This document shows positions 30,572 through 58,300 of a DNA stretch of 64,000 nt, piece after piece. Source of the stretch: Rotaria socialis (taxonomy: Eukaryota); assembly GCA_905331295.1 (NCBI GenBank), contig CAJNYD010000223.1, forward strand, positions 124,001 through 188,000. Direction: 5' to 3'. Position 1 is the stretch's first letter. Each line of letters opens with the position of its first letter. Both the position numbers and the translations under genes were made by a program. Below the pieces are notes generated by a model. The model was not told where the DNA came from. It saw only the letters and a list, made by a program, of their open reading frames with translations, and searched no databases.

Positions 30572-32494
30572 TTATGTTGCAGAATTCATAGCATTCGCTT
30601 GTGTATAATATTCTTGTGCTTTTTTTATGGAACCCTTTTTTTCATGAACCATACCAATATTTCGAAGTGCTGCTGCAATACTAGGATGTTGATTAGGTAA
30701 AAATTTTAATTTGATTTGAAATGCTTCATTATAGTGCTCTAGTGCATGATCATATTTTTTGATCATAAAATAGATATTACCGATATTGTTATGTATCGCA
30801 CTTAGACTGCGATAATCGATCGGTACATGTTGTTTTGCTATGTTTAATGCCATGTTATAGTATTCGAGTGCCTTTAAATAATCTTTCTGATCTTCATAGA
30901 CAGCGCCAATGTTATTTAGACACATGGCTACTTTTGAATGATTCTCGCCGAATGATTGTTCCCAAATTTTCAAAGCTTTCTCATATGACTTCAGTGCTTG
31001 AACATAATCATGTTTTTTCCGGTAAACTATTGCAATACTATTGTAACTCGATGCTATATTGGGATCGCTTGAATTTAGATTTTCTACTCTGATTGCCAAT
31101 GCATCCATATGCCACTGAAGACTTTCATCGTATTTGCCTTTCGCAGTAGCTAGAGTACCTAATGAATAATAGCAATCAGCATTATCTTTAGGGCTATGTG
31201 ACGATTCATTTAGAAAACGGCGATAGTATTTTTCGGCTTCATTAAATTTTCCCATATCACGTATTGTATTACCATATGTAAGCATATTTGTGTCTTGTTT
31301 TATATATTCATTTTTCATTTGATTAATAATCGATTTTGAATCATGATGTTCATCACTGGCAAGAGCAAGTTGAACGGTCCATAATTCATCTTTGTCACAG
31401 TCAACATTAAGTATTTTAAAAATTGATCCGAACATAAACAGGACCTCTTCTTCGTCTGGATAAAAACTAGATGATGTTATATTAGCAAACGGTTTGATAC
31501 CTTTCAATTGAGGATCAGCTTCAATTTCGAATAAAACCTGTTCAAGATCACTCGAATAATCGAGAAATAGAAGAGCTTTATCACGACGCGTACTTGTAGA
31601 AAAAAATGAATTCATAGCGATATGTTTACAAATGTAATTTTTAAATAATTCGATTTCATCTTTTGACATTAGTTGACATCGATAGAGACGCAGTGACGAC
31701 GAACACCGTCGTTTTTCTAATTGTTGTCCAATATCACGAATAAAAAAACGAAACAAAAATAGTAAATCAATATTTAACACACGAAGTGCTTTATTCATAA
31801 GCCGATAGAGAAATGCCTCTCGTGTATACCACCATAAACATCTTTCAGAAGAATAATATTTTTCGAAATCATTGAGCACTGATAATTCTGACAGAGGGTA
31901 ATGAATTCTTTCTTTTCAACTGAATTTGATTTCATACGCAGAAGACAATCGATCAATAATTCAGACTGAATAAATTGACCACTAAGATCATTCGTTGATT
32001 GTTCTTGTTTAGTATTTCTATTACTTAAATTTATAGGCAAAGGCTCATCAACCTTATTGCGACTTCGCCGTTCTTGATCTGACCGAATCAGAGAAATCAG
32101 TTCATCTAATAAAACAATTATACCCCTAACCTAAAACGACCAATAAATATGACTCGAGTAATTATTTGTAATATTCATCTACTTTTTTAAATTGATTAGC
32201 CCATAGTTCATTTCGTTTCTTATCTTTACAGTAGACATAAATAGCAGCGAGTTGTCGTAATGAATGAATGCGTGGTACTATGATTTGACCGAGCCGACCA
32301 CTCGCTATGAGTACAACGCGATCGTCTCTTTGCAATGATTTAATATAGGTTTCACACTTATCAGCATCATCAAATGTTTTCAAAAAATTTATCGAGGTTC
32401 GAAGTTGATGTTGAGCATCGATATTTTCTTGTGTTTCATTTACTGAGGCATCGAGCCAAATAAGAGAGAATGTTTCAAGATTTTCTTCAATCAT
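30572..32494 (-). pseudogene. Receiver-like + ART + TPR paralogue with a single frameshift (recent pseudogene or assembly error)
   Basis: Exon 1 reads MIEENLETFSLIWLD...QFKK, followed by intron 32131-32182. There is a frameshift near 31885 (ITLCQNY / ELSVLNDFE), then ART motifs LYRCQ / FFSTS / EEEVLF and TPR repeats. Confidence 0.75.
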
Positions 32495-32841: not shown

Positions 32842-32940
32842 AGGGTGTGGGTGTGGGTGTGGGTGTAGGTGAAAGCATAGATATAGTGTTTAGACCAACA
32901 CCATACCCAAACCCACACACATGCATACCCACACCCACTC
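32842..32940. repeat. Telomere-repeat-bounded mini-element at the gag truncation point
   Basis: AGGGTGTGGGTGTGGGTGTGGGTG...CATACCCACACCCACTC. Confidence 0.7.
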
Positions 32941-34159
32941 TTCTCGTAGACGGATACATTTTTGATCTGTATGTAAAGATAATTGGAATCGATTTTTGAT
33001 TTCGATTGTGAAAGTTTGCCATGATAAAAGTCGATGTTTTTTTTGCTCGAACCAACTTTTAGCATCATTGGTTAGACTTTTCGGAATAAGTTTTAATTTG
33101 ATTTCTTCACTGACTAATGTGGAAGAAAAATCCTGTTCAATATTCTGTAACCATTCGTCTACATCATCATGTTTATTGCCAGAGTGTTTTCGAATATTAT
33201 TAATTTTTTCTTTAATTAACTGTTGTTCGATGAAGTTATCATATTTAAATGAATTATTTCCAAGTGATTTCTGAAGTGGTTGTGGTTCCATGGATGATAA
33301 AGATGACATTGAATTAATATTAGAATTATTATAAATGACAGAATGTGATGCAACTCCATGATGTTGTTGGTGAAATTTTTCATTCATTAATTCTTGAATA
33401 TGTATCTGTTGTTGAAGTAAAAGTTAGCGTTGATCTTCAATAACTTTCTGTGTTTGAGCTAATTCGGCAGCAAATGTTTCACGTAATTGTTGTAATAGAG
33501 TATTTGAATGCGATGATCCACCGTCAGTTTTGATATTGTCAATTGTTTCCTGGATTGGAGAATGTATTAAACATTTCTTTTCTACGTCATGGAATTGTTG
33601 ATGTTCTTTATCAGTATTAGATATAAACGATAATGAATCGATATTTGTGGTTAACTGTTCCATATTATCTCCTTGTTGTACTAAGTCAATTTCGTTGAAA
33701 TCGGTATTTTCTGTATGTGTCTGTGATCGAGTACGTGAAGCGATAGGATTATCGATTGATTGTTCCATAACAACGAATGTTGACTAGTAATAAGAGTATT
33801 GCCGGGTTCGTTCGCTTGATTGAGAGTTGTTATTCAATAAGCGTGGCTAGTGCACCAATTGTTACAGTTTATCAAGGCCAAGAAAATTGTCCCTATCTTC
33901 GCTTCCTTTTATTAATGAATAATAATCACTTTTCACCTCCTTAACAACAAACGCTCTTGTACATATATATATATATATATGAGTAGAAGAAAAAGAAGAT
34001 CAACGAAGAGAAGAGAATGTAGTAGAAGAAGATCAAAGAAGAGAGGAGAAGGAGAAAGAAAAGAAAATACATATATCAACCATGTACTACATCTAGCGAA
34101 CAAGAATATAATTGTTCGCTTACACTGTTCTCTGTCGTTCTTCTCCTTTGCACGTGACA
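32941..34159 (-). mobile_element. Truncated Ty3/gypsy-type LTR retrotransposon: 5' LTR, PBS and gag fragment
   Basis: 300-bp LTR at 33860-34159 (TGTCAC...GTAACA on the minus strand), followed by PBS TGGTGCACTAGCC. The gag starts at 33768, has one in-frame stop at 33424 and a retrotransposon-gag motif (DVDEWL...LTNDAKSWF...SWQTF...NRF). Confidence 0.8.
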
Positions 34160-34368: not shown

Positions 34369-36963
34369 ATGCTTAAAATAAGTATCTTTTATTTTCTATC
34401 TTGTTTAATTGCTTCTGAACTATTTCAACATAATTCTGATCAATCTGATTACGAAAAAAAGAAAAATTATATTGTTCTTTCCGTCATTTTTGGAACAACG
34501 TCTCATGCAAAGCCAATGCTTTACATTGGAGAAGAAATGTCTAAACGAGACCATGAAGTTGTTTATATGGGTACCCCAACAACTATACAATTTGCTAAAT
34601 GATTCAATATTCTGACTATTCCTCTTAAAACTCCTTCAGACATTCAACCTGTTAAAATGTTTACTTCCAATATGATAGATAAAGATGCGCTCATGCTAAA
34701 CGGATATTCAGATGCAAAAATTAAAAAATTGGAAGAAGAAATGGTTGAATTAAGGAGGAGCACAGCCGAACAGGTATCCATTGCCACTTTGATTTCAACA
34801 GGATTTCACCTGGTTGTTGATGAAGCCTATGAAACAGCTGTCTTTGGATTATTGGATGCTTTTGAAAAAAGAAGACCCGACTTGATTATTTGCGATTTTA
34901 TGGGAATGGCTTGTATAGATGTATGCGCTCATCTTCATATACCTTATATGATTATGGTTTTCTCTCTTGCATACATCGACCATCTTGAATTGCCCAAATA
35001 CATTCCCAATCAGCACATTGGTAGATCATTTTTCTCAATTACTTTTTGGAAACGTTTCTATGATAAATTTATTCTTGGTCCTCGTGCTTTTGCGCTCATT
35101 TTTCTTGGAATTCAAAAAATGAATCGAATTTGAACCAAGTACGGATTACGAACATACTATAATCCTCTAAGTAATATTGCGCATCATCATGTTCTTCTGA
35201 CCTGTTTCGTTGGCTGGACTATTCCTCACTTGATCTCACATTTCATTCACACGGTCAGACCCATAATAGGAAAAAACGAACTTGGAAAACAAAATCCTGA
35301 TGATTTATTTCATTGGTTGGAAGAAGCCAGAACATTGAATGAATCAGTTATTCATGTTCCCTCTACTGAAAGGAGGGTATTACGAAAAACGAGTTAAATG
35401 TGTTCGTTCGTAAGTTCGTAAGTTCGCAAGTTCGTAAGTTCGTTCGTCCAATAGGAAAGCAGATGCATAAATTTCACAAATCTCAAACAATATCTGCAGA
35501 GATAGGTTTCACCGAAGGTAATCGGGGTCGGGGAACACGATGGCGTTGTCAGATTTTTTATATTTTGCTTTTCCCTTTTTTTACGAGAGAGAGAGACTTT
35601 TTTACAGAAAAAATTAGTTTAATATAAGGGTTGACCGAAGGTAATCGGGTCCGGGAACACGATGGCGTTGTCAGATTTTTGAAATTATGAAGTTGAAGCA
35701 AGTTTATAATGGGTTACGAGCTGTTTAGATCGTCACATTTTCTTGATAGGAATTCTCTGTAGGGAAATTTTTTGAGGGTACCATTCGATGATGATTATAG
35801 TGTTAGATGTATCGTATGGTTATGTGAGATTTCATTACGAATAGGCATCGTGCGGTGGAATTGATTCTCAATTTGGGAGCGGCTAGCCGNNNNNNNNNNN
35901 NNNNNNNNNNNNNNNNNNNNNNNNNNNNNNNNNNNNNNNNNCTCCGTTATCAAGCTGATCGAAAGTTTTCGGAGCATAGCTTGAGGTGTAGCAGATCGGA
36001 TGCACTTAACTTTACTATTGCCATATAGTATTAGTGAGTACTACTTAAATGCCGTTTTCTGGGTGATACTTCCAAGCATGTTTTCTATTTATGCTCGATT
36101 ATCAATCGTGTTTTCCATGAAAATCATTTCAAAGCTATAAAATGTGAAGTCTCTCAGCTAGATAGTTTAGAATAGGTACGTTCTACATGACTAAATCCTT
36201 TCAGTAGAGGGTCAGCGGCGCTTATGCCGCGTTACTTGTTGCCTTTGGTAGTATTGCCATTCCTTCTAGCGATCATATCAAAGTTCTACTGGATGGATTT
36301 TTTATGGATTCATCCTGTACTTTTCATATAAGAAAAGATTCATCTTCTTTAAGAATCTTATGGTCCTTGAGTGGACTTTCAATGATAAATTTTCCGCTGG
36401 AAACTATAAACAAATACGATGGGTACAATATTCGTTTTGAAGAGTGGGTGCCTCAATTGAATGTCCTTGCTCATGAGTCAGTAAAATTGTTTGTTACACA
36501 TGGCGGAATGGAAAGTATTCATGAAGTACTTTATGTGGGTAAACCATCTATTATCGTACCATTCTTTGGTGACCAGCATGCAAAAGCTGTTTTGAGTCGT
36601 GATCGAGGTCTTGGAGATTTTTTAAACAAGAACACAATGACTTCTATAGATATTTGTAAAAAAGTACACAATCTTATTATCGACTACGGAAATCGCTCTT
36701 CAGAACTCTACCATAATTTTTATAAAATGAGTCGAATTGTTAATTATAATCTCAACAGCTATAAAGAGATTTATAATGTGCTGGAAATGGAAATGGAAAA
36801 TGGATCACAACATCTGATTCCACCTTCTGTTTCATGGATTGTTGCGAATGATGCAGACCTTTGGGCAACTATTTTCGCAATAATATCGATCTCGGTTTAT
36901 GCCATATGGTTTGCATACAAGAAATTATGTAGCAAACAAAAAGTAAAAGTAAAAACTAACTAA
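34369..36963 (+). pseudogene. UDP-glycosyltransferase (GT1/UGT) pseudogene, intronless
   Basis: Signal peptide, GTTSHAKP...RDHEV, PDLIICD, the UGT signature WVPQLNVLAHESVKLFVTHGGMESIHE...PFFGDQ and a C-terminal TM helix plus Lys-rich tail. There are in-frame TGA codons at 34600 and 35131 and an insertion at 35359-36240. Confidence 0.85.
35359..36240 (+). mobile_element. Helentron-associated non-autonomous element (HINE/DINE-1-like) inserted in the UGT gene
   Basis: Subterminal IR CCCTCTACTGAAAGGA / TCCTTTCAGTAGAGGG, 3' hairpin GCGGC-GCTTAT-GCCGC, (GTTC/GTAA) microsatellite and T-rich end ...ACTTGTT. Removing it restores VIHV|AFGS. It contains an assembly gap at 35890-35941. Confidence 0.75.
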
Positions 36964-37344
36964 CGTACAATCAGGTAGAAAACAAAAACTGTCATTTGTC
37001 TTGATTTTTATTACCGCGACTAAATGGAGGGTCATATGAAATAAAATGAGTTTGCTTGCTTGATTGCATGCATCCATGTTCCAGATCACGTGTTCAAATG
37101 TGTCTTGAAAGGTATAAAGTTTGACCGAAGGTAATCGGAGTCGAACAATCCGAATTGGAGTACTAGGTTGAAGAAATATTGTTTGAGGAAAACGATGTTC
37201 AAGTACGAGGTTACTAAAATTGTCTATGTTTGTATTTTTACTAGAGATAGGCTTGCTGCGGATCCACAATAATCATCTGCTGTAAAAGCGTATATCAAGC
37301 AGAGACCAACTAGGCTTGAGTGATGCCCAAACGGACGGTTAGAC

Positions 37345-37622
37345 TAGGGTGTGGGTGTTCAATCTCCTCTACATCCACACCCTCATGTGGATACGACTGA
37401 AACACTCACTCTTTTTCTAGTTTATAGCCTTTTTTTGTCATAGCATATAATCACAAGTATGAGATAGTCAAAATGTGCATATTAAAATAAGATCTGCGTT
37501 ATAAAACGATAAACATCTCGCCTGTGGTCAAGTTTCGAATTCATTATTTCACTTAGGATGAGCTTGTAGGGACCAGGGTGTGAGTGTGGGTGTATTTTCT
37601 TCTCAATAACACCCACACCCTG
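37345..37622. repeat. Two telomere-repeat-bounded mini-elements (37345-37383, 37574-37622)
   Basis: TAGGGTGTGGGTG...CATCCACACCCT and CAGGGTGTGAGTGTGGGTG...CACCCACACCCTG. Confidence 0.7.
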
Positions 37623-38512
37623 AAGCTATCTCAAATAAATGCATCTGTTGATAACTGCTATATACACGTTAGAAGCACTCATTTTTCTTAGATCGATGTA
37701 TGAAATCAGCTAACGTAAAAGCACCTCGAATATCTCTAAGAGATGAATTTGCTGATGTCGCATACAAAAGGACTTCAACTTTGTTTCGAAATTCTCCTTC
37801 GTGCTTCGTCCTATGTCAAAAATTATACAAGGCGAATATCGACATACAGTCCTCTATAACTTTCACACAAATGTCTTCAATCATGAAAAGAATTCCCCCG
37901 AAAGTTTTCGTAGCACTGTGGAGGACTTCTTGAAGTGAACGTCTTTTCAAGAGGCCTGGGAAGGTTAGCGAGGATTTTAAAACTAATCCTTCTTTCATTT
38001 GCGCACAATATTTGTAGAAGGAACCAAATAAGCTACTTTTACCAACTCCTTTTTTCAACAGGAACTTGTTGTTAAATTAAGGATACATAAATTATGATAA
38101 TATTTCAGCACACTTACATAAGCATGAACATAAATTTATCTACACTCACCCTTACCCATATAATCACGTCTTCAATTTTGTAAAGCATTGCTATCTCGGC
38201 TTGCCTCCATAGTTTAGAGAGCCATTCTTTAGATAATACTTTTATCGAAAAAGAGGAATTTAATTAGGAGAGGCCTTTCACTTTCAACTTAATCGTAACT
38301 CAAATATTTTTATTAGTTCCCTGAAAATCTACAAAGAGAGATGGCATGCCCATAATCCTTGTTATTCTTATCTTGAGAGATACTCATTTTTTTAACTAGG
38401 ATTAGTTTCCTACAAATTTTGATAGCATATCTTAATCTTAGTCTAAGAACAAGCCAACAATCACTGACGGTATATAAAAGACGCAAAATTGAGCTAGACA
38501 ATATACAGAAGG

Positions 38513-38977
38513 ATGAAAAATCAGTTATTCATCGTGATCCAGATCATTGGTTGCTTATATCAAGGGTTTGGATTCTCTGATGGACTATGTCCAGCAGGTT
38601 TCTCATGTCGAAACTTCAAAAATAGTTCTCCACCGGCTCCTTGCCCACCGGGTACATTTAGTATCCTTGGTCAACATGACTGTAAACCGTGTGCTCCAGG
38701 CTACTACACGAATCACAGTGCTTCTGAGTCCTGCGAAGCATGTCCAGCAGGTTTTATGTGCCCATTTGCCGATCAAAATCCAGTGGCTTGTCCTGTAGGT
38801 ACATATACTTCTTTTACCAGACAATCATGCTGTTCTCTCTGCCCAGTTGGTACTTACAACACTCGTATTGCATCAACCAATTGCGTAAAATGTCCTGCCG
38901 GTGCCTCGTGTCGTCCAGTCTCTCCACCTAGCTGCGGTGAGTTTAAATTAGAAACTATCTTTAGATCTGTCCAGTAA
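38513..38977 (+). CDS. Secreted cysteine-rich repeat protein (GCC2/GCC3, ephrin-receptor-like/TNFR-like repeats)
   Basis: Signal peptide followed by repeated CP.G.Y/F...C..CP.G units. A likely splice donor lies near 38937, so the true 3' end is uncertain. Confidence 0.8.
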   Translation: MKNQLFIVIQIIGCLYQGFGFSDGLCPAGFSCRNFKNSSPPAPCPPGTFSILGQHDCKPCAPGYYTNHSASESCEACPAGFMCPFADQNPVACPVGTYTSFTRQSCCSLCPVGTYNTRIASTNCVKCPAGASCRPVSPPSCGEFKLETIFRSVQ

Positions 38978-39657
38978 TTTTAGTACGAACTACAATAGCA
39001 CTTGAAAAGGCAACTCTATTAAACTTCTCCCTTATTCTGTTATTTCACGTTTTAATCTACAACTTCAAGGTTCATGTAACATATAGATGCTACCCAATTA
39101 CATTTCTATAAGAATACAATGAAAAAACGATTTTGAGATTCCAAGGTAAAAAAATGATGTCGCATACACTAGAAAACCAAAAACTGGTTTATAACTTTTC
39201 GATGAGAACGAGGCCTTTTTTCTGTGCTATACCCCAATTTTCTTGAAATATAATCTAGTTTAAAGTCGTATGTGAATCTCCGGCGAAAATTTGATGAAAT
39301 TGGTGGTCATTTGCCAATTCTCGGTCACATTGACTGCTTTCTTTGAGTAGTCATGATATTATTGAGAAAGCAAATAAATACTCCAACGCTGAAATTTCAT
39401 GGTTCAAACGCGCCTCAATAATACCAAATTGTACGCACTATCTAATCCGGTGTTGTTGCTTACAAGTCGAAGATTAAATGCTATAAAATGTCGTGTAAAC
39501 TGCTCGACGATAAACAAAAGCTGTTAGCGCAATCCCTGTGGGATTAAAATGTGAAACACGATGAAACTTCTTTGTTGGAACTCGTCTACCACGGTCTGTA
39601 ATCATATATGCAGCTTTTCGGTCACAGTCTGTATGTTGATCTATGAACTCGGTAGAG

Positions 39658-39772
39658 ATCATCACAGAGTGTGACAGAATTTACCTACCATCACAGGCCG
39701 TGACAGAGAAATCACAAACCATCACAGAACGTGACAGAGAATTTACAAACCATCACAGACAGTGGCAGAGAA
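39658..39772. repeat. Short tandem array of ATCACAG..(C/T)GTGACAGAG units (probable transposon subterminal relic)
   Basis: Four imperfect ~30-bp units visible directly. Confidence 0.55.
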
Positions 39773-40506
39773 ATGAATTAATTAACCAATTAGTTAATTA
39801 ATTAATTTCTCTGTCCCGGTCTGTGGGGGTGGGGGGTGGGGGATGGGTCCAAATTTCTACCCTATATACTTCAACACTCCTTTCAGATCGTGTTTCACAA
39901 AAGTTAGTAGTCAATTCGAGTTTTTCCAAAGATGATTCATTTCGATGGTTAAGTCACAAAAACACAATAGTCAGCTATGTGCATCTCACTGTACTCTATT
40001 CTATGGTATATGCGACTCTGATATACAAGGCACTATGATGCCAATATTACAAAAACTAGCGAGAACCCGTCCATACTTCTCGGCTGTTTTCTCCTTTAAT
40101 TTATGATCGTATACCTTGAATCATTTATCTGGTAACACATATAGATAGACAGTCTTCGACCTTATAGCCTCATATATGCTGTAAATCTTAGAGTCATATC
40201 TCTTTATTATCTTACATCCTTGAGAATCTATCAATACCCCAATATAATAGCCCTGTTGCTTTCCAGTGCAGCGTTATTAGAACTTTAGCATTTGACCTTC
40301 GAACCGGCACATATGTTTGTTTGTCTTTTCTAGATTGCTTTTTCATTTGATAAAAAAACAATTGAGTTCATCAAATGTTTTAGCTTTACTGAATTAATAA
40401 TAAATTTTATTTTTAATTATTGTCGCATGATTTATTTTGGTATGAGGTGTTTACTTTACGGCGCTCACCGTCTTATTTATACCGAGTTATCTGATAACTC
40501 ATGAGA

Positions 40507-40617
40507 AGGGTGTGGGTGTGGGTGTGGGTGCGGGTTTAAATAGTCACTTCATTCATCCACAACCACACCCACCCACATCCACTCACACCCACACCCACAC
40601 CCAAAATATGGGTGTGG
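40507..40617. repeat. Telomere-repeat-bounded mini-element, same subfamily as 27588
   Basis: Core GGGTTTAAATAGTCACTTCATTCATCCACAACCACACCC. Confidence 0.8.
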
Positions 40618-41277
40618 TAGTTTTGAAGGATGGCATTTCGAATGTACATGAATAGAATGAAAATATTAAATTTCCGCCAGTGCCTAATATACTAGGCTAA
40701 TCCTCGGTATTCTCACGGATGTTCTCGTAAATGCTAATCTACGTAGTTCATCTTTCAAATTCACTCCGAATACAGCTCTCTCCACGATCGATACCTTTGA
40801 CATCGGTTTCTAAGGCGAACTAAGTTGCGTCTTTAAAATGCAATTATTAAAAGCAGGAAAAATAATTTCACAGAGCAGCGTTTGTAAAAAGCCCAACCCA
40901 GTTTGGAACGATATTGACTCTTATAATGTGTATTTCTACTCGTGGATAACATTTTTCGTATCCTATTAGCGTCTGACACCTTTGTTTTCTTTGTAGATTA
41001 AACGGTCTAATGCATAAAAATATAGAACTGCCACTATATTATTCAAAACCTTTATTCTTCTATAGTAGGATAAGTAATACGACTTTTAAATTCTGTTCTC
41101 GCACGTGTATGAAAAAATTGCAAAAATCATTCTACAGCTTTCTTTATTTTGAAGAGCTAAAATTTAATTAATCGATCTATTCCTCGTACCAATCCTGTCT
41201 GTCATAGGAAACTAGAGCAGCAATTAGTCCACTGTTTTCAACTTATTACAATTGCTCATTTAAAAAATCCACAACTC

Positions 41278-41796
41278 ATGGCAACAAACTCGTCGTATTC
41301 TCAAAAAGTGCTCAACTGCCGTGGTCGTGCTTGTGCTAAATGTGGTTACTGCCGTGATTGGTACTACACACCTCATCATCCTACGAAGATTTATACAAAG
41401 CGTCAGGATGCAATCTGCACTTCTGCTTATGCTTATGGTCATCGTGGTTTTGGTCCTGGTTGTGGTGGTTGCTGTCTTTGTTGTGTTGCTCACATTCCTT
41501 TTGGTAATCTTTGTTCTCGTCCTTATTATGGTGGTAGTGGTTTTCTTCGTGGTGGTCTTAATTATAATATTCAGACTCTTGCTGGTGTTGATCATGCTGC
41601 TCGTCGTCGCCGTAATAATGCTGTTGGTGTTGCTACTCATGTTGATCTTGTTCTTGGTAGTATGTTTCGTGATGTTACTGTTTTTGCTAATGGTATCGCT
41701 GATCTTACTGATGATACTCTTAATGCTCGTATTGCTCTTGGTCGTGCTCATCATGATGATGGCCGTTTGTGTGAATGTAGTGACAATCAGCAGTAA
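41278..41796 (+). CDS. Small Cys-framed protein with an NNT-codon central region (unknown function)
   Basis: ATG-initiated 172-aa intronless ORF with an N-terminal C-x4-C-x2-C-x2-CRDW motif, a C-terminal LCEC and a central region in which 108 of 114 codons end in T. Confidence 0.65.
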   Translation: MATNSSYSQKVLNCRGRACAKCGYCRDWYYTPHHPTKIYTKRQDAICTSAYAYGHRGFGPGCGGCCLCCVAHIPFGNLCSRPYYGGSGFLRGGLNYNIQTLAGVDHAARRRRNNAVGVATHVDLVLGSMFRDVTVFANGIADLTDDTLNARIALGRAHHDDGRLCECSDNQQ

Positions 41797-42972
41797 CTGT
41801 CCTTTAGTGGCGCTGAAAGTGTTTTTGTAGTTTTCATTATTAGTTGAAGAAATAGAGCATATTAAGGGAACGATTGTAGTCCCTTTGTCCGATGTGGATC
41901 AGTCTGACGAAAGTCTCATGAATGTTCATTTGTGTTAACTAACAGTTTCATTACTTATTTTATGTGTATGGCAATTGCTAATCAATAGTCTTAATTATTC
42001 GAAAAGTTTGAGTTTGGCGATGATTGTTCCTCTCAAGAAGTATGATAAATAATATTGAGGGTAACAATCGGTGTTGATTGCCAAGTGAGATCTTTGTCAT
42101 GTTTATAATGAAGATTGGTTTTATAGTTGAGTATTTTACCCATTTTCAATATCAATAAAATATCTGCTTTATAGCTCGTGTCTTCATATGATAAATACAT
42201 TAAATTTGACTTGGAGGAATTAATAGCTTGGGTATCCTATGTAAATCAGAAAGAATTGAACGGTGAGAACAGTTAATATTACTGGTTACGTCTTACCTTA
42301 AGGAACTCGTCACGTAATTTTATCCCTAGTCCCATTCAAACAGATCAAGTTGAGACTGTTTACTCTGTTACAAATTCAATTATCTAAACCAAATCCACAA
42401 TTGCAATTTCAGAACACGATGACATATTGCTTGAATTAAAAGCTATACTTGTTTCACGTGAACCAGACATTAGTCTAAAAGTAGCGAAGTAGTGCACATT
42501 AAAGATGCTGATCAATCACTTTCATCCTTAAAAGGTTCAATAGTAGTGATAAATTATTTGACTTACGAGGGAAGGTCCCTGGGTGTTTCTCTGGGATTTC
42601 AATGAAACCTATGTGGGTTTGTGAGGCTCAGTGTTAGTATCTCAAATACAGTAAAATTAGCGGCTGAGATTAATCGGTTCAAAAAGTTTGCAATAAAAAC
42701 ATTTTTTACTTAGAATCCCGAGGCGAACCACAGGTAAATGCTTTTGACTAAGAAAGTTCACAAAAAAGTTGAAATACCCGGCTTAGTTTTTAACTCTAAT
42801 TCCAAATATATTACTGGTTTTCACTCATGCTGTATTCGTCTCACCAAAAGTTGCAAATTATATGTCAAAAAAAGTAGAAAATGATATCTTAACATTAATC
42901 TTTCACGAAGTTCGTAAATTACGAATCTTTTAGGAGTTTAAAAAATGCATGACTTCATAATGTTTCAAAGGC

Positions 42973-43032
42973 AGGTGTGAGTGTGAGTGCGGGTGTGAGA
43001 GCAAATGGTAACCACATCCACACCCACACCCT
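42973..43032. repeat. Telomere-repeat-bounded mini-element
   Basis: AGGTGTGAGTGTGAGTGCGGGTGTGAG...CACATCCACACCCACACCCT. Confidence 0.65.
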
Positions 43033-45584: not shown

Positions 45585-46303
45585 GTCTTAACATAATTCT
45601 AGCACATTATTTTTGTCGATCAACTAAGACACTTAATGCGTTTAGATAAATATGATCTTCATAAGTCTATGCTTTCTCTACGTATATTACCTCGCTACGC
45701 AATAATCAACTTACTAAAATCAAAGAGAAGCAAGTTGGTGATATATTAACTACGAAACTGTAGGAAAATTTTGATGTTGTCCTCAGTAAAAGGAATTAAA
45801 AGTACGCACGTAGACCATTATGCAGAGAATTGAATTTAGTATACAATAATATGGAGGTCAGCATAAAAAGTTTTTTGTTAGAGAATCTGAAATTCATCTT
45901 TTGAAGAGTTTAAAACCTATTTTAGTTACAGCTGCCTATTTTTAAGAAAAAGAATTAATTTCTTAATCAGCGACTTCTCATGTTGCGTGAGCAAGCCGAT
46001 CCTCCATTTTTATAAGTAAATGTCATCAAGAGAGTATAGTAAACAATTTAAAAGATCCTAGTAGTTAATTAAGCTATAATGAATCACACATCCCACTTAT
46101 GCAGTTTCTGCATATAAAATCGACTTTTCATTCGATAATTTCTCGTTTGCTTGAATTTACAACATCGCCAATCAGGAGCATAAATCTGCACCCTTGAGTT
46201 TAGTACATTTGTAGTATTGGATTATGGTTCGTTTCTAGAATTTCTATTGCAAACATTATTCAATTGTGATTAAAATCGTAAAAAATAAATCAGCTAAAAT
46301 ACT

Positions 46304-49300
46304 ATGATTAGCTCTACATTGAACGACACGGCAGATGATACAGGTGGCAATAAAGATTCAGACACCAAATTAGTGGTACCTACGAATACTATCAATGATT
46401 TAACAACCATTCAGTCAATGACCCCCACAAATTCTACAACAGTACAATCTGGCGAGCAACTCGAGCAAAATAAATATCTTGAATCTAATAGAAAGCTACT
46501 GAATGACAAAACTAATGACACGATGAACGTAACTGAGAAAATTATCGCAGATTCGTCAGCAGTGATGCACAGTAGTTCCAATGCCGAAAGTAGGGAAGGT
46601 TTTACCTTGAAGTATAATGAAAATGGCAACGAAAAAGACGACTTTTTAATAAAACATAATAATGAATTAAATATAACTGAAAATCAAGAACTAAATGAAA
46701 GAACTTCATTACCGGTCGATGAATCGAGTGGCACAATCAGTAAGGAAATCACAATGAGTGGTGATTCCCTATATTTCGATAAAAGTAAGGACGCAATTGA
46801 GAAAAAAGCTTGTAATACAAAAATCTTTTCCGACAAAGTTGTTGATGGTACAAATACTTCTGAATTTCTCAATAATCCAATTGAAAAACCTACTGATTTA
46901 TCAGAATCTTCTTCATCAGCCAACATAAACACTTGCACACAAAATTCAACCAAATTTTCTTTAAATTCAAAAAAATCTCGTTTGCATATATATGTAATGC
47001 GGGACATTGAACCAAAGGAGGTCTTCAATATGGAAGTTGTTTTCTCAAAATCAAGTACGTTTCCGATGGTATCGACTCCGATAAATGCATATACTCGAAA
47101 ACCTGGCCCATTCATTTACTCCATTCAATTAGATTTAACACAGGCACCAGATGGATGTTGGTTCTGTCCAAATGAATCTTCGTGTAATCGTTGCGATTCA
47201 TTTTACATCAGGATCAAGCAAACTAGTTTAAAAGTCACAAAGTGGCATTATGATGATCAACAAAAGCACTCAACAAATATTTTGGCAGAAACATCACATT
47301 TGTTCATACTCGATTCTCACTTCAACAAAAGCTACGGAACCCATGCACCAGGTAAACTATGACGAATTCAATTATGATGGTAATCCGAACGTTGCATTTT
47401 AGGCTCTCAGATACCAATTTTGCGTCAACTTTCTCTCTATACTTCACATATATTAAATAAACATCTGTATGGTACCTTCGACACGCTAGCTAAGCAGGTG
47501 GAAGATTTTTTAAAAAGATCGAATTGCTCTATCGATAATCAACAGGTGAATGACTTCTTAGAGATGTGTTGTCAGTACTTACTGCCAACATTATTGCATG
47601 CCTCTTCACGTGATAGAGTCGTGATTACAATCATTGTTCGTATGATTGGATTGTTAAAAATAGAACGACATACACTTGATGAAAATTCTGAATTGCTTAA
47701 ATTATTTGCAAATAATACATTGTCTTGTGTATCAAAGTACTTAAATGATTTAATTGATTCTCTGAAACCTTCTGAATGTGATCAATTCGAAAATGGTTTA
47801 GCTCTACTGCTATGCGTCCAGTTAGCGACTCGAATATCGATAGAACCTCACTCAAAGAGAGATCATTCCTTCGGAATCGAACTACTTCAGAGTATATCAA
47901 ATGAAGTACAACGCAGAAAAATTATTGATAAAACTGTGAGCTATATAAAACTTTTAAGATGGATAATGAAATTGGAAACAAAAACATGGGGTTCACTTTT
48001 AATGCTTGTTCGATTGGATTACTACTCGTTTACAAATTTAAATCAATGCACTTCTTTCAAAGAATATTTTGAAATTTTAATGAAAATTGTACCGGTACTA
48101 GCACAAAAAGAGACTTTTGAACATAATTTGGAACAAAATTTTCAACATAAGATGCAGAGAAACGTGTTCCCAAGTATGATTATTTCTTCTGCCATCTGAT
48201 AAATTAAAATTCATTGACCTGTACTTTTAGTAACTTTCGAGAGTATCATATATTTGGATACATTCCTAAAAGAAAAGTTATCGGGCAACGATGAATTCAT
48301 GGAAAAATCTTTGAAAACAATTCATTTGGCAATTGAATCCAATCATCTGTTATCAACACAAATAGAAAAATTCATGGGATCTGTGCGCATTGACGATAGA
48401 AACTTCGATGTCATTTGCAGTATTCTGCAACGGATCCCAAGTTCAACTATTTTATATAGTATTGATAGAAAACAAATAATATTAGAATCCCTCAAAAGTT
48501 CGTATTGCCAAAAAACAGATGCATTCTATATGAAATGGTTTAACAGTTTCTTGGTTCCACATCAAGAACAACATTTATTGACTACTGAAAGCGATTTCAA
48601 CTACTGTCTGACGATTTGGCTGTCTTCTTGTATACGTAGTTACGATCAACTTGTTAGATTGTTATCAGGAATTGATCAAATCATAGATGATTTTCATCAA
48701 CATCCATATCTTATCTGCTTTTTAAATCATGTAAACGATCTTTGTTTTCAGGAAGGTAAATCTCTAGAAAATAATTCAGACTTAATCAGTCTATTGTTTA
48801 AATTTCTTCTATAGACACCCGCACGTTTCAGTTATTAGTCGATGTACTTGGAAACATTCGAACAACAAGTTTTCTTGATGAATTCAAGAAGAGATTCATT
48901 CATCTTATTATCATGCCTGCGAAACAGGACTTAAAACGGATGGAAAAAGTCAATAATCCTTTATTAAAACTAGTAGAAATCTATGAAAAACCAAATCGAC
49001 AACAGAAACTTAATGAGATAGTATGTGGCTTAATTAAATTGACATGTGACCAAATAGACATCACCGATGATGTTATAAAACAAAATACGTTCATTCAACC
49101 GAATAGTCAATCACTCGTGTATAAAGTTTTATTTAAGGGATGTTTTAAAGAAACAAAAATCTATCAAAAAACTACAGATTGGATGCTTTGCCAGTGGATT
49201 TTATGGGGAGAAAAAAAAGAATTTAAAATACAAGATATCTATGAATACAAAGATCATACAAAAGAACAACGTGAGGTCTTTAATCGTATTTGGAAATTTA

Positions 49301-52300
49301 TTAGCAATATGTCACAGAAAAACTTTGATTTTGACATGTTGATCAATGAGCAAGAAAAGCAAATCGAAGATTTTACACGTAACATAAATGATATTCTAAC
49401 ATGTTTGAAAATGTATTGTCACAATGGATCCGATATTAATTACTACATCGATCTTCTTGATCAAATACAGAAATCAATCCAGGCGCAAATTATCCGGAAT
49501 GTTTCACTTTCTGAAGATCTCCAGAAACTTTTACCATTGGCCCAAAAACTTAATCCGTATTCTAAGTCGAAAACTTGGAAGATTTTTCTCCAGGATTATT
49601 CAAAACGTAAGATTATATTATCTATTACTGCATGTCTCTAGAAAGCAAACAGAAATTTCTCAACACAATTCAGTTGAGAAATCAATAAGCAAATTGAAAA
49701 TTATATTCAAGGGCATCCAGTAAAGAGTGCGTTAAATAAGAAAGAAGGCTTGCTCGTTAGTAGTTTATCTGAAAGCAACTTATAATAGAATTTCAATAAC
49801 TTCTTCTCATCTCATATTGTGAATACCGGATCATTTTTTGCGGTAAACCGTGGTGCTTATCATTCCTTAGGTAAATTACACTGATATAGGACTCAGTAGC
49901 CGGACCGGTAAAACCGCGGTTAACCGTCGATTTTCTTGTGGTTTTTATTACATGGGATCGTTTTATGAATACTCATTGCTTACAGTCAGTCTATCCAAAT
50001 CAAAGGGCTTGATATAGATTTCAAGAAGCATGGGGATCGAAGGGCTAAATAAAAATATTTTCCTATTATTTTGAACATTTTATAAGTATTTGTGAGAGGC
50101 TCATTCTTAATAAAAGCTAATTTTAAGCATTGTCCACAAGATATTCTTCAATTCTGAAGACTTATGGTCGTTTTCAATTTGCAAAAATCTAAGATATTTC
50201 TTGAATATAATTGAAAAATTGAAATTTTATGCGGAATGATGAAAAAATCTCATAAAATGATTGCTCACTTTTCAGTTGAGACATTTTCTCTGAGTAGATT
50301 TTTGTGAATTTAAAAACGCATATCAAGTCGTTTGTTTGTAATTAGTATATGCGTCCTAACGTTTATTTACAATTACATTCAGTCAGATTTACGTCTTAAA
50401 AGTGAACAGTTTCACTTCTTGACGGACGAATAAAACAAAAATCTATAGTGCTTAGATCTTACGGTCACCGGCCAATTTAAAACTCAAATAAAAAATTATA
50501 GTGTTTGATTCATATCTAAGCTATAGAATGAAAATCAAGACTTCACGTACATGTTCCAATGAATCCGAGGGCTTTGAATACCTAAACACATTTATATGCA
50601 TAGCAGATATTACAGCTTAAAAAAATTAGATAATATCCGAGGTAGAGAAGTATGGGCCGGTTCTCGCTGGAAAACACCTGAACATAGAAGCAGTATTTCG
50701 GCCGCAAAATGTTCTTACTTTGTTCCGGTGGAATCCTGCACTGTCCGGCAGGAACCGGTTGGAAATCATCGGAAAAAATCTGAAGAATTTCCAGTGGGAA
50801 TACTGCTTCCATGTTCCGATGATTTCCGGTGTTTTCCTGCAGGATATGACGATTTTCCCGCATCTTCCCTGCCGGCCCCTGCAGTATCTGGTGGTCGGAA
50901 TGATTGACATGAATATAGATAAGGATTATTTCAGAATATATCTATGGAATCTTCCAGTATTATTATATTATATCCGAACAGCTGCATTCGTTTACATCAT
51001 TCACATTAATTGAACATGATTCTTTATTAACACTCAGAAACACTTCTCTAGTAAAAATTATTGATTATTATGAATTAAATGCTAGAGCATATCTATTTAT
51101 GTTTATTCCATTTACCATATAATCCTTTCGCTGTAGTTTCTCGGCGAAATTTAGTTTCCCAACATATGTAGAATTTATAGGATTATTTAACATAACATTC
51201 AGCCAGTGGCGGCGGAGCCATTGAGAGCCACGAGGCTTGAGCCTCATCTAGATTTCGCAAGATGAGGCTCAACCTCACTTGCATTTGTACTGAATATTGC
51301 TATTTTTTATTCTTGCATCAAAGAAACAGCAAAGAAAAGAGTTTTTTTAGTATTTTCAAATCTTTTCTTTTGTACCCACCATTTCTATTTTTTCTGAAGT
51401 TCAATAAAAAGAAGACTTATTTTCTGATTGAAGCTTACATCAAATTCCACGATAGAAAAACAAATTATGAGCCTCACCTAGCTTAATGACGCTCCGCCGC
51501 CCCAGCATTCAGCAAACATGTTGTAACTTTATTTCGGTGTGCTTTCAATATCTTGAAAACGATTTATATAGTTTTAGTCAAATTTGAAAAGTTGAAAATA
51601 AATATTTGCTGAATATTCTATAGCTGAAAATATTCTCTCTATTTGATCACCATTTTAGTAGCTAAATCAACGACGGGTAACCTTGATCAGGAAATAACAA
51701 CAGATTGCAATGTTGATGTACCACATCAAATCCACTGCTTGGATGAGCTTGAACGAATCAAAGCACTGTTCGACATATTTGATGTAGAATTAAAACGTAT
51801 ATCTGCCCAATGGGATCATCTTCCTATCTCACAAATAATTGCACTTTTCCCTGAATTGCAATTCATTGATGATGATTTTCTCACTCTTAAATCGCTTTTC
51901 AATGATTCGGCTATTCCATCACTTGAAAAAATTCTTAACTATTGGAAACATCATCAGCGTATTAATGAGATGTGCCAAAGTATAATAAAATTACTCAAAT
52001 ATCTTAATTTAACCAATGATAATGATGGTTCATCAATAACTGAACGTATGCTCAAGTTGAACGAAGAAACGCCAGGTGAAATCTGTTGTAAAACGTACAA
52101 TGAATATTGTACGTCTTATTTCAAAAAATATTCGAACGAAACTCTTGATTTCATAGAAAAATTTAACGCTTCAACAGAACTTCTTGAATTTATACGCCCA
52201 TTAACTTCAATTGATATTGAAAGTTTACTTGAATCTATAAACGATTCAGATGAAACGCTGATTGATGCACCAACAATCATTAATTTGACTAAGATAAAAT

Positions 52301-55300
52301 CCTTTTTCGAACATATAAATCAAGAAGTTGAAACAATTCGTAAACAAATATCAACGTCTGTTCCACATGATATAATTATCAAGTGTTTAGAAAATTTATT
52401 GAACAAAACAGAGTTCAAAAACATTGTTTCATATATTGATTCAGGTTTGAACTCTTTAACCTCCATTCAGCGGTTGTACATGGAATTAACAAATAAAGGA
52501 CTGTCGAAACGACAACGTATTCTCGAGATAATGCAAACATCACAGCTGGCTTTTTTAGAACAACGGGAAAATATATATGGAAATATTGAACATCAGTTCA
52601 ATGTTAAAATCACAATTAAAGAGCAAACTCTATCTACTATTAATCATAAATCTACTGTAACTAAAGAAAACATAAAAGAACGATCAATAACTTATGTTGA
52701 TCTTCATGAACTTCGTGATCGAGCACGTCTAATAGAATACTCAACTAATAAAGTAAAAGAAGATTCGGAAGATCAACTTGATAAGCTTCGTTCATTTATC
52801 GAAATGGTAGATCTTATTGAAACAATTTTAAAAGATTTGACATCACTGAATCTTACTGGGCATCCATCTATATTAGAATATCTAGAACCAAAACGTTTAT
52901 TTAGATGCGATGCCGGTCACTTCGACGAGTTGAAAGTCATGTCAAGTCAGCTTAATCAAATTCTTACCGATTGGAATAATTATTTATGTGAAAAATATAA
53001 AGATTATGTTTGTTTGACTTACTTTTCACATCAACAAATCTGGTGGGTGGAAGATTATTTGTATGAAGACGAGTCAGAGTCAACAAAATATTTTGGCTAT
53101 CATTTTATGAAATTTATTGATATTGATATTCCATCGATTCAGACAAATCTTTTACAGAAAAAAGCAGTCAAACCAGAAGAACGTTTACAAAATATTGCTC
53201 GAATATTGAATGATGTGCAAATAGCAACTCCGATAGGATTCTCGAATGAATCAAACATGAATAAAACCATTTATCTTGTGAGCACCACGGATGAGAGTAT
53301 TTTACGTTCAATACTTTCAATCTTTGAATTGAACAAGATGCAACCGAAAATGAACCACCTTTTCTATTGTACACCGACAACAAGTTGGATTGAAATACGA
53401 GCATTTGTATATCGCTGTTTCTATTCGAAAAAATCCCTACATCAATTGATTCGACCTGATCTATTGTCGCTGTCAATTCAAGATCAATTTACACATTTAA
53501 TCCGAGATTTAATTAAAAGCGATCCAGAACGCTCGTTTCATTTAGGTATTGTTACAACAGCATCAACTGATCAATTACAATTAATCAACGGTTTGAAAGT
53601 GCTTAAAATTGATCAAACGGTAGCAGATCATGAATTGCTTGATGAAGAAAAAATGAAAAATGAAATTGAAAAACTCATCGGTGAAAATTGTCAAATGGTA
53701 ACATCGGATATTGTAGGTCTAGGCAAGTCGACGTATATACGAGACAAAATTCAAGAATTGAAGAAAGAATACATCAAAATTACTATTAATGGTAATTTTG
53801 ATGCTGATACAATTACTGAAAGGTTAACCAAAATAACAGCTAAATTGTCATCATCACAAGCCGCTATTCATCTTGATATTGGTATCATGGATAATGTTCA
53901 ACAATTTAATGAATTTCTCTATTGTCTTTTAATGTTTCGTGCTTTTCGATCAGGACGCATGGCTGTAACAATTCCTGCTGATATACCAATATTTATTGAG
54001 TTCGATTCATCGTATTCATCAAGTCGCATAACAAGTAAAGCTGTCGTTTTACGATATTTACCAAAACATCATATTGATCATATCGATTGGAATCAACTAA
54101 AAATTGAAAATCGATGGAGTACACTTTTTGTTGTTCAGTATTTGAAAGCTATTCAGGATCAGACAATTTCTAGTCAGAATATTCAGAGAGATACAAATCA
54201 ATTGAAAGATTTGACTGTCGAACAATGTATCACACATTTGAAAAATCAATTCGATACGGGAAAAAACAACGAACTGGCTACTTGGACACAATTGAACATT
54301 TATACATCTATATACGACACTATATTTAGTGGATTTTCCCTATGTGGACATTTTATGGTATTTATATTTAATGATAAAGACGAACAAAAATCTCAACTAC
54401 GTATTCAGATATTTGACGATGAACAAGAACAAATACAAAAGGCTCAACTACGTATTCATATACTCCAAACTTTATTAGATTCATCTAGCCAATTCACATC
54501 TCTGTCAGTTAGAAATGTTCGTAATAAGCAGCGATCACTAGACATTACTGATACTTCACTGAGCGATGCTATAGTACGGTGGGACAAGACAGATCCTTTT
54601 ACTGTTGTGTTTTCTGATACATATGATCCCTTATTCATTTACAAGGCCATCAACGATATACCGGAGTCACTTCGAATCGAGTTTCAAAGATGTAACAGAA
54701 TAGAAAGAAGAGCTACCCAGGGCACACACACTCGACAGGATCTTTTCCGACTCAGAAGAAGCCGATTGAGTGGCCTGGATAGGCAACAACACAACACACA
54801 AACACAAGAATTATTACCAGATTATAGCAAATTGAAACATGAGGAGCTCTTTTTAAAACTAGCTTCATTATCGAAGAAGTATTATCGAAGACCAATTTGC
54901 CGAAAATGTTTCAAACAATATGAATCGACAGTGAAACATTGCCAATCGTGTCCAGCCAAAGATCAATTATATTGGGCTCATGAACTGAAAACTAATCAGA
55001 TGGAAAGTCTTATAAAAGATATTGGCAATAATCTTGGAACTCATTATGTTTTGACGCCGGATAATTACATCAAAATGCTATTGATCTACTTGCGTATTCA
55101 AAGCAATATACCCGTGTTAATTATGGGTGAAACAGGTATAGATCTATATATAACAGCTATGTCTTAATAATTATGTATTACAACTGATATTGATCTGAAA
55201 GGCTTTCTGATTTGAGGCTAAAAGATTCATAGGAAAGAAACCAATAAAAACTTTTTAAGTACTAGAGCTTTTATATTCCATTTGTTTCTCCTGTATTTCA

Positions 55301-58300
55301 ATCTTTTTCATTATTCGTCTCAAATATTGTGTCTATTGAAGTGGCTGTTAAGAAAAAGGGTCGAAGTTTTATTTATTTTTCTTTCTGGCATCTAACATCG
55401 TATTTAACGTTCCTTTACCGTTTAGGAAATAGCATAGCACGTTTATGTTTTACACAACCGATTTCTTTTATGCTAATTAGATCTACGTATGCTACGCGTA
55501 TTTCTTGTATCAAAACTGGGATATATTGATTTTTGACTTAGCAAAACGGTTTCTGTCTACTTGATTATTTCAAATCATTGAAAAACCACTGTAATATTGA
55601 GTAGACGATTAGAAAAATAGCCAGATATAGCACATAAAATATAATTCATAGGTATTTTTATTCAAGCATGAGGGATACGGATGTACGGTGTAGTTGCGAA
55701 TGAAAACAAAACTCAGAATTCAGATTTTTTTCCCGCTACATATAGGCTTATTTTTCAACAGATATCCACCCCGAATGATATGGAAATGGTCGAGATGAAA
55801 ATATCGAATATAAAAAAATGCCGAAACGTTCGAAGATGACTTAAATAAACAGTTTAATATTAAATTGTATCCTATTGGTAGCTACAGTTAAGTAATGATA
55901 TTTTTCTCATTATACATTGTATGATACCCCCACTATAGAAGCCCTCCAGAGAAAGGTCAATATGAAAATGGGTTAGAAGCCCCCTGGGCTTCTATTAATA
56001 CAGTAGTAAATTTTGTTGTCTCTCTATATAAAATTTCACAGATTTTCGCAAAATTATTTGAGCTTATCGCAAATAAATAGTGAAGATCATTGAAATAATG
56101 ACTCACTTACAAGGAGCAAACAGCTGAAATCAGACTTTTCTTCTTTTTTGTGATTTTTCTTATTTGCTTGATTTTAAATTAGAAAAACTCAAAAAAAAAT
56201 CAGCAATAAATTAAAAGTTTTAAAAAATAAAAAAATAAAATAAACTTACAAATTAGAAAAAACAATAAAAAATTTAAAAGAATCAAAATTTTAACAAATT
56301 ATAGAAATCAAAACAATCTGTTTCAAGTTGTCTCAGCCTAAATTGATATTTCGGACAGCAGAGATTAAAAATTTTATGAATCATGTTAGATCGAGTCATT
56401 GATTATTTTTATTTTCCTGATTTTTTGATTCTTTTATTTTTTTATTTTTTGTTTTTGAAACTTCTGTACGAAAGCCGCATTAGTCGCCCTCTCATAATAG
56501 AAGACCCATTAAAAAAATTTTGAACGCTGTTCAGTTAAGAAACCCCCGGGATATTCTATTATGGGTGGGGGTACGTGATGGTGCAGCTGTGAGCATCGCC
56601 ATATTGAGCATCTTCACACCCTCCCCTTCCTTTAATTATGGTGTAGCCATGAGTTATGATCGAACACCACCTTTTCAGAGTATAGAATGAATAAAAGCAA
56701 GATGAATTTTTTACGGTGTGGTGGTAAATGTCGATGTGCCTCTTAAATAAATAAGTGACACACCTACATCCTCACCGCATCTAATTTTAGTTGCTAAGCC
56801 ATATTTTGAGTTTCGGATAATATGTACATTGCGGATATCCGCATTCAAGTGTTTTGTTCTGAGAAAGTTTCTTTAAGCATATTTTCAGTTTTAAAACATT
56901 GACTACGATAAATATAGTTCAGCGATAGTTTATTGCTTGATAGATTTTTAATTCAATTGACCAATTTTTTTTTTAATTACTATGAGTATGTTGGTTATAG
57001 GATGCGGTAAGACATCATTGATACAAAGCTTATGTCAATACATTCTTGAAGATGAACTAGCAGTATTTAGTGTTCATGCTGGTATTATGAACGAAGATAT
57101 TGTCGAAAAGATGAACGAATTTAAAACGGAAGCCGAAAAATGTAAAGATCATGATCCACCGAAACGATTATGGATATTTTTCGATGAATTCAATACAACA
57201 TCATGTATTGGTCTATTCAAAGAAATAATTTGTGAGAGAACATTACTTGGTGAATCTTTACCAGATAATATGGTTTTTTTGGGTGCATGTAATCCACAGC
57301 GACAAAAAACTAATAAAATTACATTCGACAGCGATATCGGTATTAAAAAAGATCGTTACGCATCGGACAGATTGATTCATATCAGTGGTAATGTATCGCT
57401 GTTGTACAATGTTGTATCAATACCTGAAACAATGCTTGAATATGTTTGGGACTTTGGTTTTCTCGATAAAGATACTGAAAAAAAATATATTGAGACAATG
57501 TTAAATACATGCCAAGAACTGAAATCAAATTCGATTTGGTTTCAAATTGCAATAGAACTAGTTGTTACATCCCAGGCGTTTTTCCGGGAATATGAAGATG
57601 TTAGCAGTGTTTCATTGCGAGATGTGTCTCGGTTTTGTCGTTTATATAATTGGTATTTTGATTCTATTCGCAAAGCTGAATACAGAGGAAGCATGAACAC
57701 ATGCGCATCGGATATATTAAGTTGCTCCTGTTTAATCGCTTTAGCTCTCTGCTATTATTTCCGCATAAGTTCACCTGAACAACGTGTTAACTATGTCAAT
57801 GAAATTGAAACTGTTCTAAACAATATTACTGACATAAGTTCAAAGATAAGCAAATCGTTCATCGATATTCTACGCGATGAAGAGAACACTTTAGTTAATC
57901 AAATGGAATTGCCGGCAGGTACAGCTAAAAATCGTGGATTAATTGACAATATATTTGTACTTGTTGCCTGTATTATCAATCGAATACCTGTTATTCTATG
58001 TGGAAAGCCGGGTTGTGGCAAAACATCATCAGTACAAATTGTGATGGCAAATCTCAAAGGGAAAAAATCTAAAGATCTTTACTTTCAGCAATTGCCCTCG
58101 TTGATTCCAGTTTCATATCAGGGTTCCCAAAATTGTACATCGGAAAGTGTTAAAAAAGTTTTCGAACGTGCTAATAAATATTTAGAAGACAAACAAACAA
58201 ATGAAATCTTACCGGTAATAGTATTCGATGAAATTGGTCTTGCTGAATTATCACCACACAATCCCTTGAAAGTTTTACACAGTGAACTTGAAGTTGATTC

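Follow-up and report, generated by a model that had tools for sequence, protein, structure and literature searches.

Conotoxins make up a family of Cys-framed, hypervariable peptides. In mussel MgCRP-I, as described in PMC4558851, invariant Cys surround fast-changing sequence in a multigene family with a possible role in defence, and in diversity-generating retroelements (DGRs), as outlined in PMC3240598, the adenines of a template repeat give random bases in a variable repeat. The nearest bdelloid precedent in print, as far as the account in PMC3846280 extends, would be the N-rich inserts in Penelope ORFs of Adineta vaga.

The gene reported here lies in the window (the whole 64-kb stretch of rotifer DNA that was analysed) and encodes a small protein, P0001, whose conserved Cys frame an insert of 114 codons that nearly all end in T. 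Like a DGR target of the BPP-1 type (PMC3240598), it has a variable stretch within a constant scaffold and codons that cannot be stops; unlike the DGRs outlined there, it has an animal host, shows no variation among individuals and no adenine-specific change, has no template repeat or reverse transcriptase (RT) in the 64-kb window, and carries T at the third base instead of a template-copied mix of C and T. With the low-complexity or cryptic-simple inserts of the A. vaga Penelope ORFs (PMC3846280) it shares an in-frame position, variable length and skewed composition, and some family members also carry tandem duplications; the tract differs from those N-rich inserts in having no dominant residue or unit and using all 16 NNT codons, in a constraint that falls on one base in triplet phase, and in being hosted by a small Cys protein and not a retroelement ORF. 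The invariant Cys, the fast-changing sequence, the multigene family and the possible defence role recall MgCRP-I, but in contrast to MgCRP-I, as far as it is described, and to conotoxins, P0001 has no evident N-terminal hydrophobic signal, its variable part is a single long insert, and the codon restriction applies to every insert codon and not to the Cys. Judged by the 64-kb window and the contigs compared, the locus is not a DGR, does not behave like one over the time span of individuals, and resembles a DGR target in layout only. Neither this seven-Cys family nor the T phase was described in the literature searched, which took in few subscription papers and no supplements (the NNT codons of PMC3119063 reflect genome-wide bias in an archaeon and were judged irrelevant). 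The NNT insert is a real, expressed and family-wide feature, apparently undescribed in print.

Gene, transcript and reading frames

The features of the gene are given below; L001 denotes the corresponding locus of a different rotifer.

41153..41154, + strand: spliced-leader AG acceptor with a T-rich tract upstream, where run X9 contig 18 joins
41155..41907, + strand: transcript over the reach of the 780-nt contig, with 5' UTR, CDS, about 110 nt of 3' UTR and no intron
41278..41796, + strand: CDS of P0001, 172 aa, from the first ATG of the transcript; scaffold dN/dS 0.26 in frame 0 (window against L001), 14 full-length homologues
41278..41418, + strand: N-terminal scaffold Cx4Cx2Cx2CxDW...KR..A.C, five conserved Cys in invariant alignment columns, mixed third positions
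41419..41760, + strand: NNT-coded insert, 114 codons, by third-base counts (T in 101/119 codons of orthologue L001)
41614..41721, + strand: residues 113-148, where the insert varies most and most homologue indels fall (34% mean identity, 13 homologues)
41761..41796, + strand: C-terminal scaffold, CxC (LCEC.DN) and stop (89% identity among homologues)
41408..41830, + strand: open +1 frame, 140 aa, nearly all V/L/I/F/M (two stops in L001)
41260..41754, - strand: open antisense frame, 164 aa, rich in T/S/I/K/N/R/M (two stops in L001)

A 780-nt contig of run X9 equals window 41153-41907 with 0 mismatches and 0 gaps, and its 21 loose 5' letters, which have no genomic counterpart in the 41153 region of the window, agree with the rotifer spliced leader given in PMC3795323 (Table 1) apart from an additional A and the initial G. 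Because the contig bears this leader, the + strand is transcribed, as judged from one contig, with a leader one base longer than the published one, of a single run that is presumed to be RNA. With a leader exon joined at an AG upstream of the ATG, the gene has the sequence character of a spliced-leader trans-spliced rotifer gene. The first ATG 3' of the join, at 41278, opens + frame 0, so that the frame proposed in the initial annotation stands to the extent that this single contig from a guessed RNA run can support it. No NTN or ANN codon can be a stop, which leaves the +1 and antisense frames open in the window; they are read here as probable by-products of the T phase.

Gene models P0054 and P0057, which fuse the ORF to upstream glycosyltransferase and Cys-repeat exons, were rejected in favour of the leader-spliced form, and the fusions in P0016, P0045, P0051 and P0077 may therefore be prediction errors too. 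The glycosyltransferase exon, the Cys-repeat exon and the NNT gene, which some models fuse, all run in one direction over window 36304-41796 (+ strand); together with the leader acceptor at 41154, these neighbours could form an operon-like arrangement.

The tract of T-ending codons

Third bases of the 114 codons at 41419-41760 are T in 108, C in 4, G in 2 and A in 0, exactly the counts first reported, and all 16 NNT codons occur, whereas the 47 N-terminal codons 5' of the tract have mixed third positions (T 20, C 10, G 9, A 8), as had also been stated. The background comprises 4771 codons from 13 further ORFs in the window, with T at 37.6% of third bases and 36.6% of four-fold sites and K/E/Q/W/M at 21.5% of codons. 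Compared with these, the tract has T at 68/69 four-fold sites (P 9e-29), T endings in 37/39 NNY codons (P 4e-4) and, as its K/E/Q/W/M codons, one CAG and one ATG (2/114, P 5e-10); the last figure agrees with the initial view that the constraint acts on the DNA and not just on synonymous choice. Other in-phase 114-codon stretches on the + strand of the window contain at most 65 T-ending codons and at most 63 A-ending ones, the latter count covering the - strand. A mild rise in third-base T (29/40 codons), far weaker than the tract, is seen at 59984-60154 (+ strand) in a long AAA ORF.

Several simple origins were rejected. The tract has no tandem repeats by TRF, the internal repeats in its DNA and in the L001 tract do not exceed codon shuffles, and its commonest codon accounts for 17/114 with no dominant unit; the absence of a repeating unit that had been noted from the letters is thus borne out, and one decayed trinucleotide microsatellite, named at that stage as the case that would count against a special process, is not what is found. 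Strand-wide mutation to T is discarded with positions 1 and 2 holding T in just 18 and 28 of the 114 codons, and an assembly artefact with DNA contigs of run X7 and the X9 contig identical to the window; all sampled words are present in six runs, none of them recorded as RNA, which are flagged as possible sources of the window itself. Gene-wide codon bias is ruled out by the restriction of the T bias to the insert inside one mRNA, with four-fold T at 68/69 insert sites versus 12/23 scaffold sites in the window (P 3e-7) and 65/71 versus 10/23 in L001 (P 5e-6). A separate 251-nt contig of run X9 matches 41444-41483 and has 30-letter loose ends made up largely of T-ending Cys/Gly/Ser codons; further T-phased tracts are likely in the organism of this contig.

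The orthologous locus

L001, the one locus kept from 214 pattern matches in a metagenome scan, differs from the window at 43/301 and 56/308 bases in its flanks. The 18 non-T third bases of its 119 insert codons include A five times. Over 108 codons aligned with the window, differences at positions 1, 2 and 3 number 33, 33 and 17, same-residue codons differ in 4/59 cases, and one non-T synonymous codon is common to both; pS and pN are 0.096 and 0.216 for the 77 best-aligned insert codons and 0.39 and 0.13 for the scaffold. Scans for more relatives' DNA kept 0/22 and 0/52 pattern matches in viral sequence and 0/11 and 1/137 in genomes, the last being L002, which was discarded as a fortuitous match on the opposite strand of what looks like a bacterial secDF gene. 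Matching L001 against four runs gave 3' UTR pieces only. A 162-nt contig of run X14 lying on L001 837-933 comes from another organism and has the same 3' UTR and LCEC end; the 30 letters before LCEC are off the T phase, seemingly shifted by one base, and the contig seems to be either a broken copy or a counter-example to the phase.

A family of Cys-framed proteins

The gene is of bdelloid origin: the identical P0001 protein is present on 9 contigs, its cluster mates being named Rotaria socialis, and homologues are named from R. socialis, R. magnacalcarata, Adineta steineri, A. vaga and Didymodactylos carnosus. Fourteen full-length homologues from several genera can be aligned along the entire insert, with 51-66% identity, and mean identity to 13 of them is 74% in the N-terminal scaffold, 61% at residues 48-112, 34% at 113-148, 77% at 149-163 and 89% in the C-terminal scaffold. 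A wider search returned 36 distant proteins (P0016-P0051) and a profile search 7 proteins. Seven invariant Cys and the DW motif are common to the wider family and frame the insert, which ranges in length over 8-147 residues, and over 8-101 in the distant set of 32 proteins, from which P0016 and P0037 (no final CxC), P0024 (unrelated) and P0050 were dropped. Only 4/528 insert pairs among these 32 and P0001 align above shuffles, so the proposed fixed Cys scaffold around length-variable, mostly unalignable middles holds at the level of the family. The initial annotation would have been refuted by an alignable middle with ordinary third positions, and half of this is seen, since the middles of the 14 homologues do align but the third bases are not ordinary.

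Outside the window and L001, the only two members with DNA, the NNT rule is read from residue content. K/E/Q/M/W make up 4.8% of the distant inserts (n=32) and 3.2% of the close inserts (n=14, with P0015 dropped from the 15 close proteins) as against 19.7% of the scaffolds; all 32 distant inserts lie below the window background of 21.5% and 9/32 have none of these residues, in line with the expectation that all middles would be poor in residues without a T-ending codon, although single inserts differ in this share, with values between 0 and 16% (P 2e-6 for heterogeneity). The same inserts have D:E 137:29, N:K 76:12 and H:Q 71:13, compared with 298:290, 279:343 and 133:231 in window ORFs. The claim that relatives keep T at the third base is accordingly confirmed for the one orthologue with DNA, L001 (101/119), and judged from residues for the others.

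Neither P0001 nor the module as it occurs in 13 relatives matches Pfam, a PDB sequence search gave nothing under E 0.17, and an Atlas search gave no usable match. AlphaFold models have pLDDT 38 and 52; fold searches on the latter returned only WW-domain-like rows with E above 5 in Foldseek and none in VIA. The seven-Cys frame is a predicted metal binder, and with models this poor both metal binding and closure of the scaffold halves are putative. In some gene models the module follows an ADP-ribosyltransferase (P0016, P0077) or a U-box kinase (P0045), fusions that may be gene-prediction errors; a search for longer fused forms gave 0 candidates and missed even the existing P0045.

Genomic neighbourhood

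Palindromic elements of the form (GGGTGT)n, a 25-50 nt spacer and (CCACAC)n occur at 40508-40603, 27590-27736, about 32843-32940 and about 42973-43031. The spacer is identical in two of them, and two flank the NNT gene, about 670 nt upstream and about 1180 nt downstream. They are possibly a small mobile element; TGTGGG is given as the bdelloid telomeric repeat in PMC7943196. From 46298 to 63998 (+ strand) runs a large gene of several exons that encodes AAA domains and an RZ-type zinc finger and continues past the window end. We take its layout to be RNF213-like. Two ORFs in which TPR repeats follow an ADP-ribosyltransferase-like domain lie at 22368-24278 and 30572-31879 (both - strand), with an NHL-repeat ORF (7818-8750) and an F-box ORF (9514-10791) near them, and from these predicted domains the neighbourhood appears to consist of expanded, defence-like families. 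A 177-codon frame at 32893-33423 (- strand) matches prok_STING (E 0.002) and Ty3/Arc capsid and gag (E 0.016-0.05), all below cut-off, and may be a retrotransposon gag remnant.

How the insert changes

In 15 close pairs, which are not all independent, 82/1299 insert sites and 61/788 scaffold sites have changed (P 0.21), with multi-base changes in 11/82 and 9/61 of these (P 0.81), and 72/82 insert changes stay among NNT-codable residues. In 12 close pairs with codons inferred, transitions account for 71/106 base changes, and of the 97 codons changed 88 differ at a single base and 9 at two. The insert therefore changes by ordinary, transition-rich point mutation. Contigs of runs X7 and X9 that match the locus carry no variant, although contigs hide rare variants, and the hypervariability first supposed for this locus is contradicted by the same protein on 9 contigs, by these invariant contigs and by an insert that is no faster than the scaffold in close pairs.

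At greater distance the transition share is 0.35, equal to the random share and thus saturated. Between window and L001, transitions at positions 1-2 are 3/33 in the insert (a count noticed post hoc and among the lowest of the pairs) versus 54/99 in the flanks, which are 14-18% apart. Together these figures indicate that the variable codons outrun the flanks, and saturation of these codons while the flanks are still close suggests that they are under diversifying selection. In-frame duplication and exchange between copies also occur among the proteins compared: P0028 carries tandem units and a 16-residue unit that P0070 lacks, P0011 contains an inserted (GL)n stretch, and P0063 of A. steineri seems to combine parts of P0061 and P0014.

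Why the third base stays T

The candidates for keeping T at the third base rank, in falling likelihood, as selection on that base, slippage with conversion, a relic state, a dedicated diversifier and an overlapping frame. Our tentative preference, held at rather less than an even chance, is that purifying selection on the message holds the third T while positions 1 and 2 change by ordinary mutation. Four-fold sites differ between window and L001 at 2/34 in the insert versus 6/16 in the scaffold (P 0.009), and the insert can be aligned both with A. steineri and with a second copy in R. socialis. For Rotaria ohnologues KS is 0.70 and the tetraploidy is older than the families, according to the figures in PMC5916493; neutral decay over half that distance would leave about 75% T (P 6e-8 for 68/69), and the T bias thus seems too old for a relic, an argument that presumes vertical descent and uses a tree split, making P0006 the ohnologue, that is weak (70/86). 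Counted against maintenance of T are the weakness of the 2/34 figure when non-coding flanks serve as neutral yardstick (P 0.12 and 0.04), the fit of the L001 T count to neutral decay since the split (P 0.6-0.8), the presence of just two supporting DNA copies, the uneven K/E/Q/M/W content, as birth-and-decay would give, and the X14 contig that leaves the T phase just before LCEC. No case of selection at the codon level that is equally strong and equally local is known to us. RNA structure of the tract is not above shuffles (z 0.37), and Rfam places no family on it, with sub-threshold hairpin matches on the flanking repeat elements only.

A possible, though in our estimate somewhat unlikely, explanation is that the inserts are cryptic simple sequence, born and refreshed by slippage in triplet register and short conversion, so that T at the third base is a by-product of turnover and selection acts at the protein level only. 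The repeated units of P0028 and P0070, the (GL)n of P0011 and the mosaic in A. steineri would fit this, as would di- to tetrapeptide repeats above shuffles in the 32 inserts, the span of insert lengths and their heterogeneous K/E/Q/M/W content, and bdelloid Penelope ORFs are described in PMC3846280 with in-frame inserts at (AAY)n motifs. The repeat excess, however, is nearly gone without P0026 and P0028 (P 0.016, 0.05, 0.18), the DNA of neither tract shows one, repetitiveness and K/E/Q/M/W content are uncorrelated (rho -0.01), and residues 48-112 are colinear across genera with T kept all the same. Close pairs are separated by single transitions and not by blocks, and events that look templated are too rare among them for third positions to be reset in that way; we infer that such a reset would need events far outnumbering point mutations, the opposite of what close pairs show. 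Less probable again is an insert that was once pure NNT and whose third bases are simply undecayed, with fast protein change and copies younger than apparent through conversion or exchange between lineages. The 65/71 four-fold T of L001 is compatible with this, and the protein distance between window and L001 is large for flanks so little different, yet residues 48-112 align with A. steineri at 58%, the two DNA copies have a single non-T synonymous codon in common, decay on the ohnologue scale predicts far less T than is seen, and the origin of the tract would be left unexplained.

That a dedicated diversifier writes NNT inserts into the scaffold, by DGR-like copying or templated triplet addition, we regard as quite improbable, even though family-wide unalignable inserts, the NNT signature, sharp borders at the scaffold Cys and block-like replacement between A. 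steineri copies are what it would produce. Blastn and tblastn found no template repeat in the 64-kb window, where the longest (AAY)n run is 4 codons and there is no paralogue of the gene, and Pfam found no RT family in the window (20 and 45 ORFs of about 85 codons or longer). The initial annotation had seen no template or RT, which these searches uphold for the window, the part of the genome that they covered. Its suggestion of DGR-like mutagenic copying is not supported: A is involved in 16/33 differences at positions 1-2 between window and L001 while 17 A sites are unchanged, the A-containing D, Y and H codons are conserved and N is the majority residue in 4/32 variable columns, the protein is the same on 9 contigs and X7/X9 contigs lack variants, and the insert rate in close pairs is not above that of the scaffold. 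Least probable of all is that an overlapping frame fixes T, through either the hydrophobic +1 product (NTN) or the antisense product (ANN). In the window neither frame is interrupted within the tract, and about 87 codons of +1 stay open in L001, so that a shorter product is conceivable, but openness is automatic by construction, each frame has its two stops in L001, the five third-base A of L001 would put polar residues or stops in +1, frame 0 has the first ATG and the purifying selection, and neither product occurs as an exact sequence in the protein collection.

Under selection on the third base, the leader-spliced gene would give a seven-Cys frame, predicted to bind metal, around an NNT-coded loop, and the two scaffold halves may close around that loop. 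NNU codons are all wobble-read by I34 or G34 tRNAs, which makes the pace of decoding the leading candidate for the selected trait; selection would most likely act on the decoding of the stretch, and we would guess that a wobble-read NNU run paces translation between the two scaffold halves. Active maintenance of T is argued from the age of the loop, new loop sequence would arise by in-frame duplication of T-ending codons, and the loop might serve, again as a guess, as a binding surface or bait in defence.

Implications

A family-wide one-base rule in triplet phase that is confined to a variable loop and strong enough to exclude five amino acids is more than gene-wide bias or a simple repeat can account for, and the tract provides a clean test case for either local selection at synonymous sites or an unknown self-templating process. 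A bolder and, to us, doubtful proposal is that bdelloids carry a germ-line library of Cys-clasped loops in which an unknown triplet-phased process writes or resets NNT rarely and in blocks, followed by tuning through point mutation, the loops acting as binding surfaces or baits and some being fused to an ADP-ribosyltransferase or kinase. If true, such a library would be the animal counterpart of the engineered NNT library. It also indicates a fast-changing and apparently undescribed protein family in an asexual animal, with a bearing on where such an animal might draw its diversity in defence.
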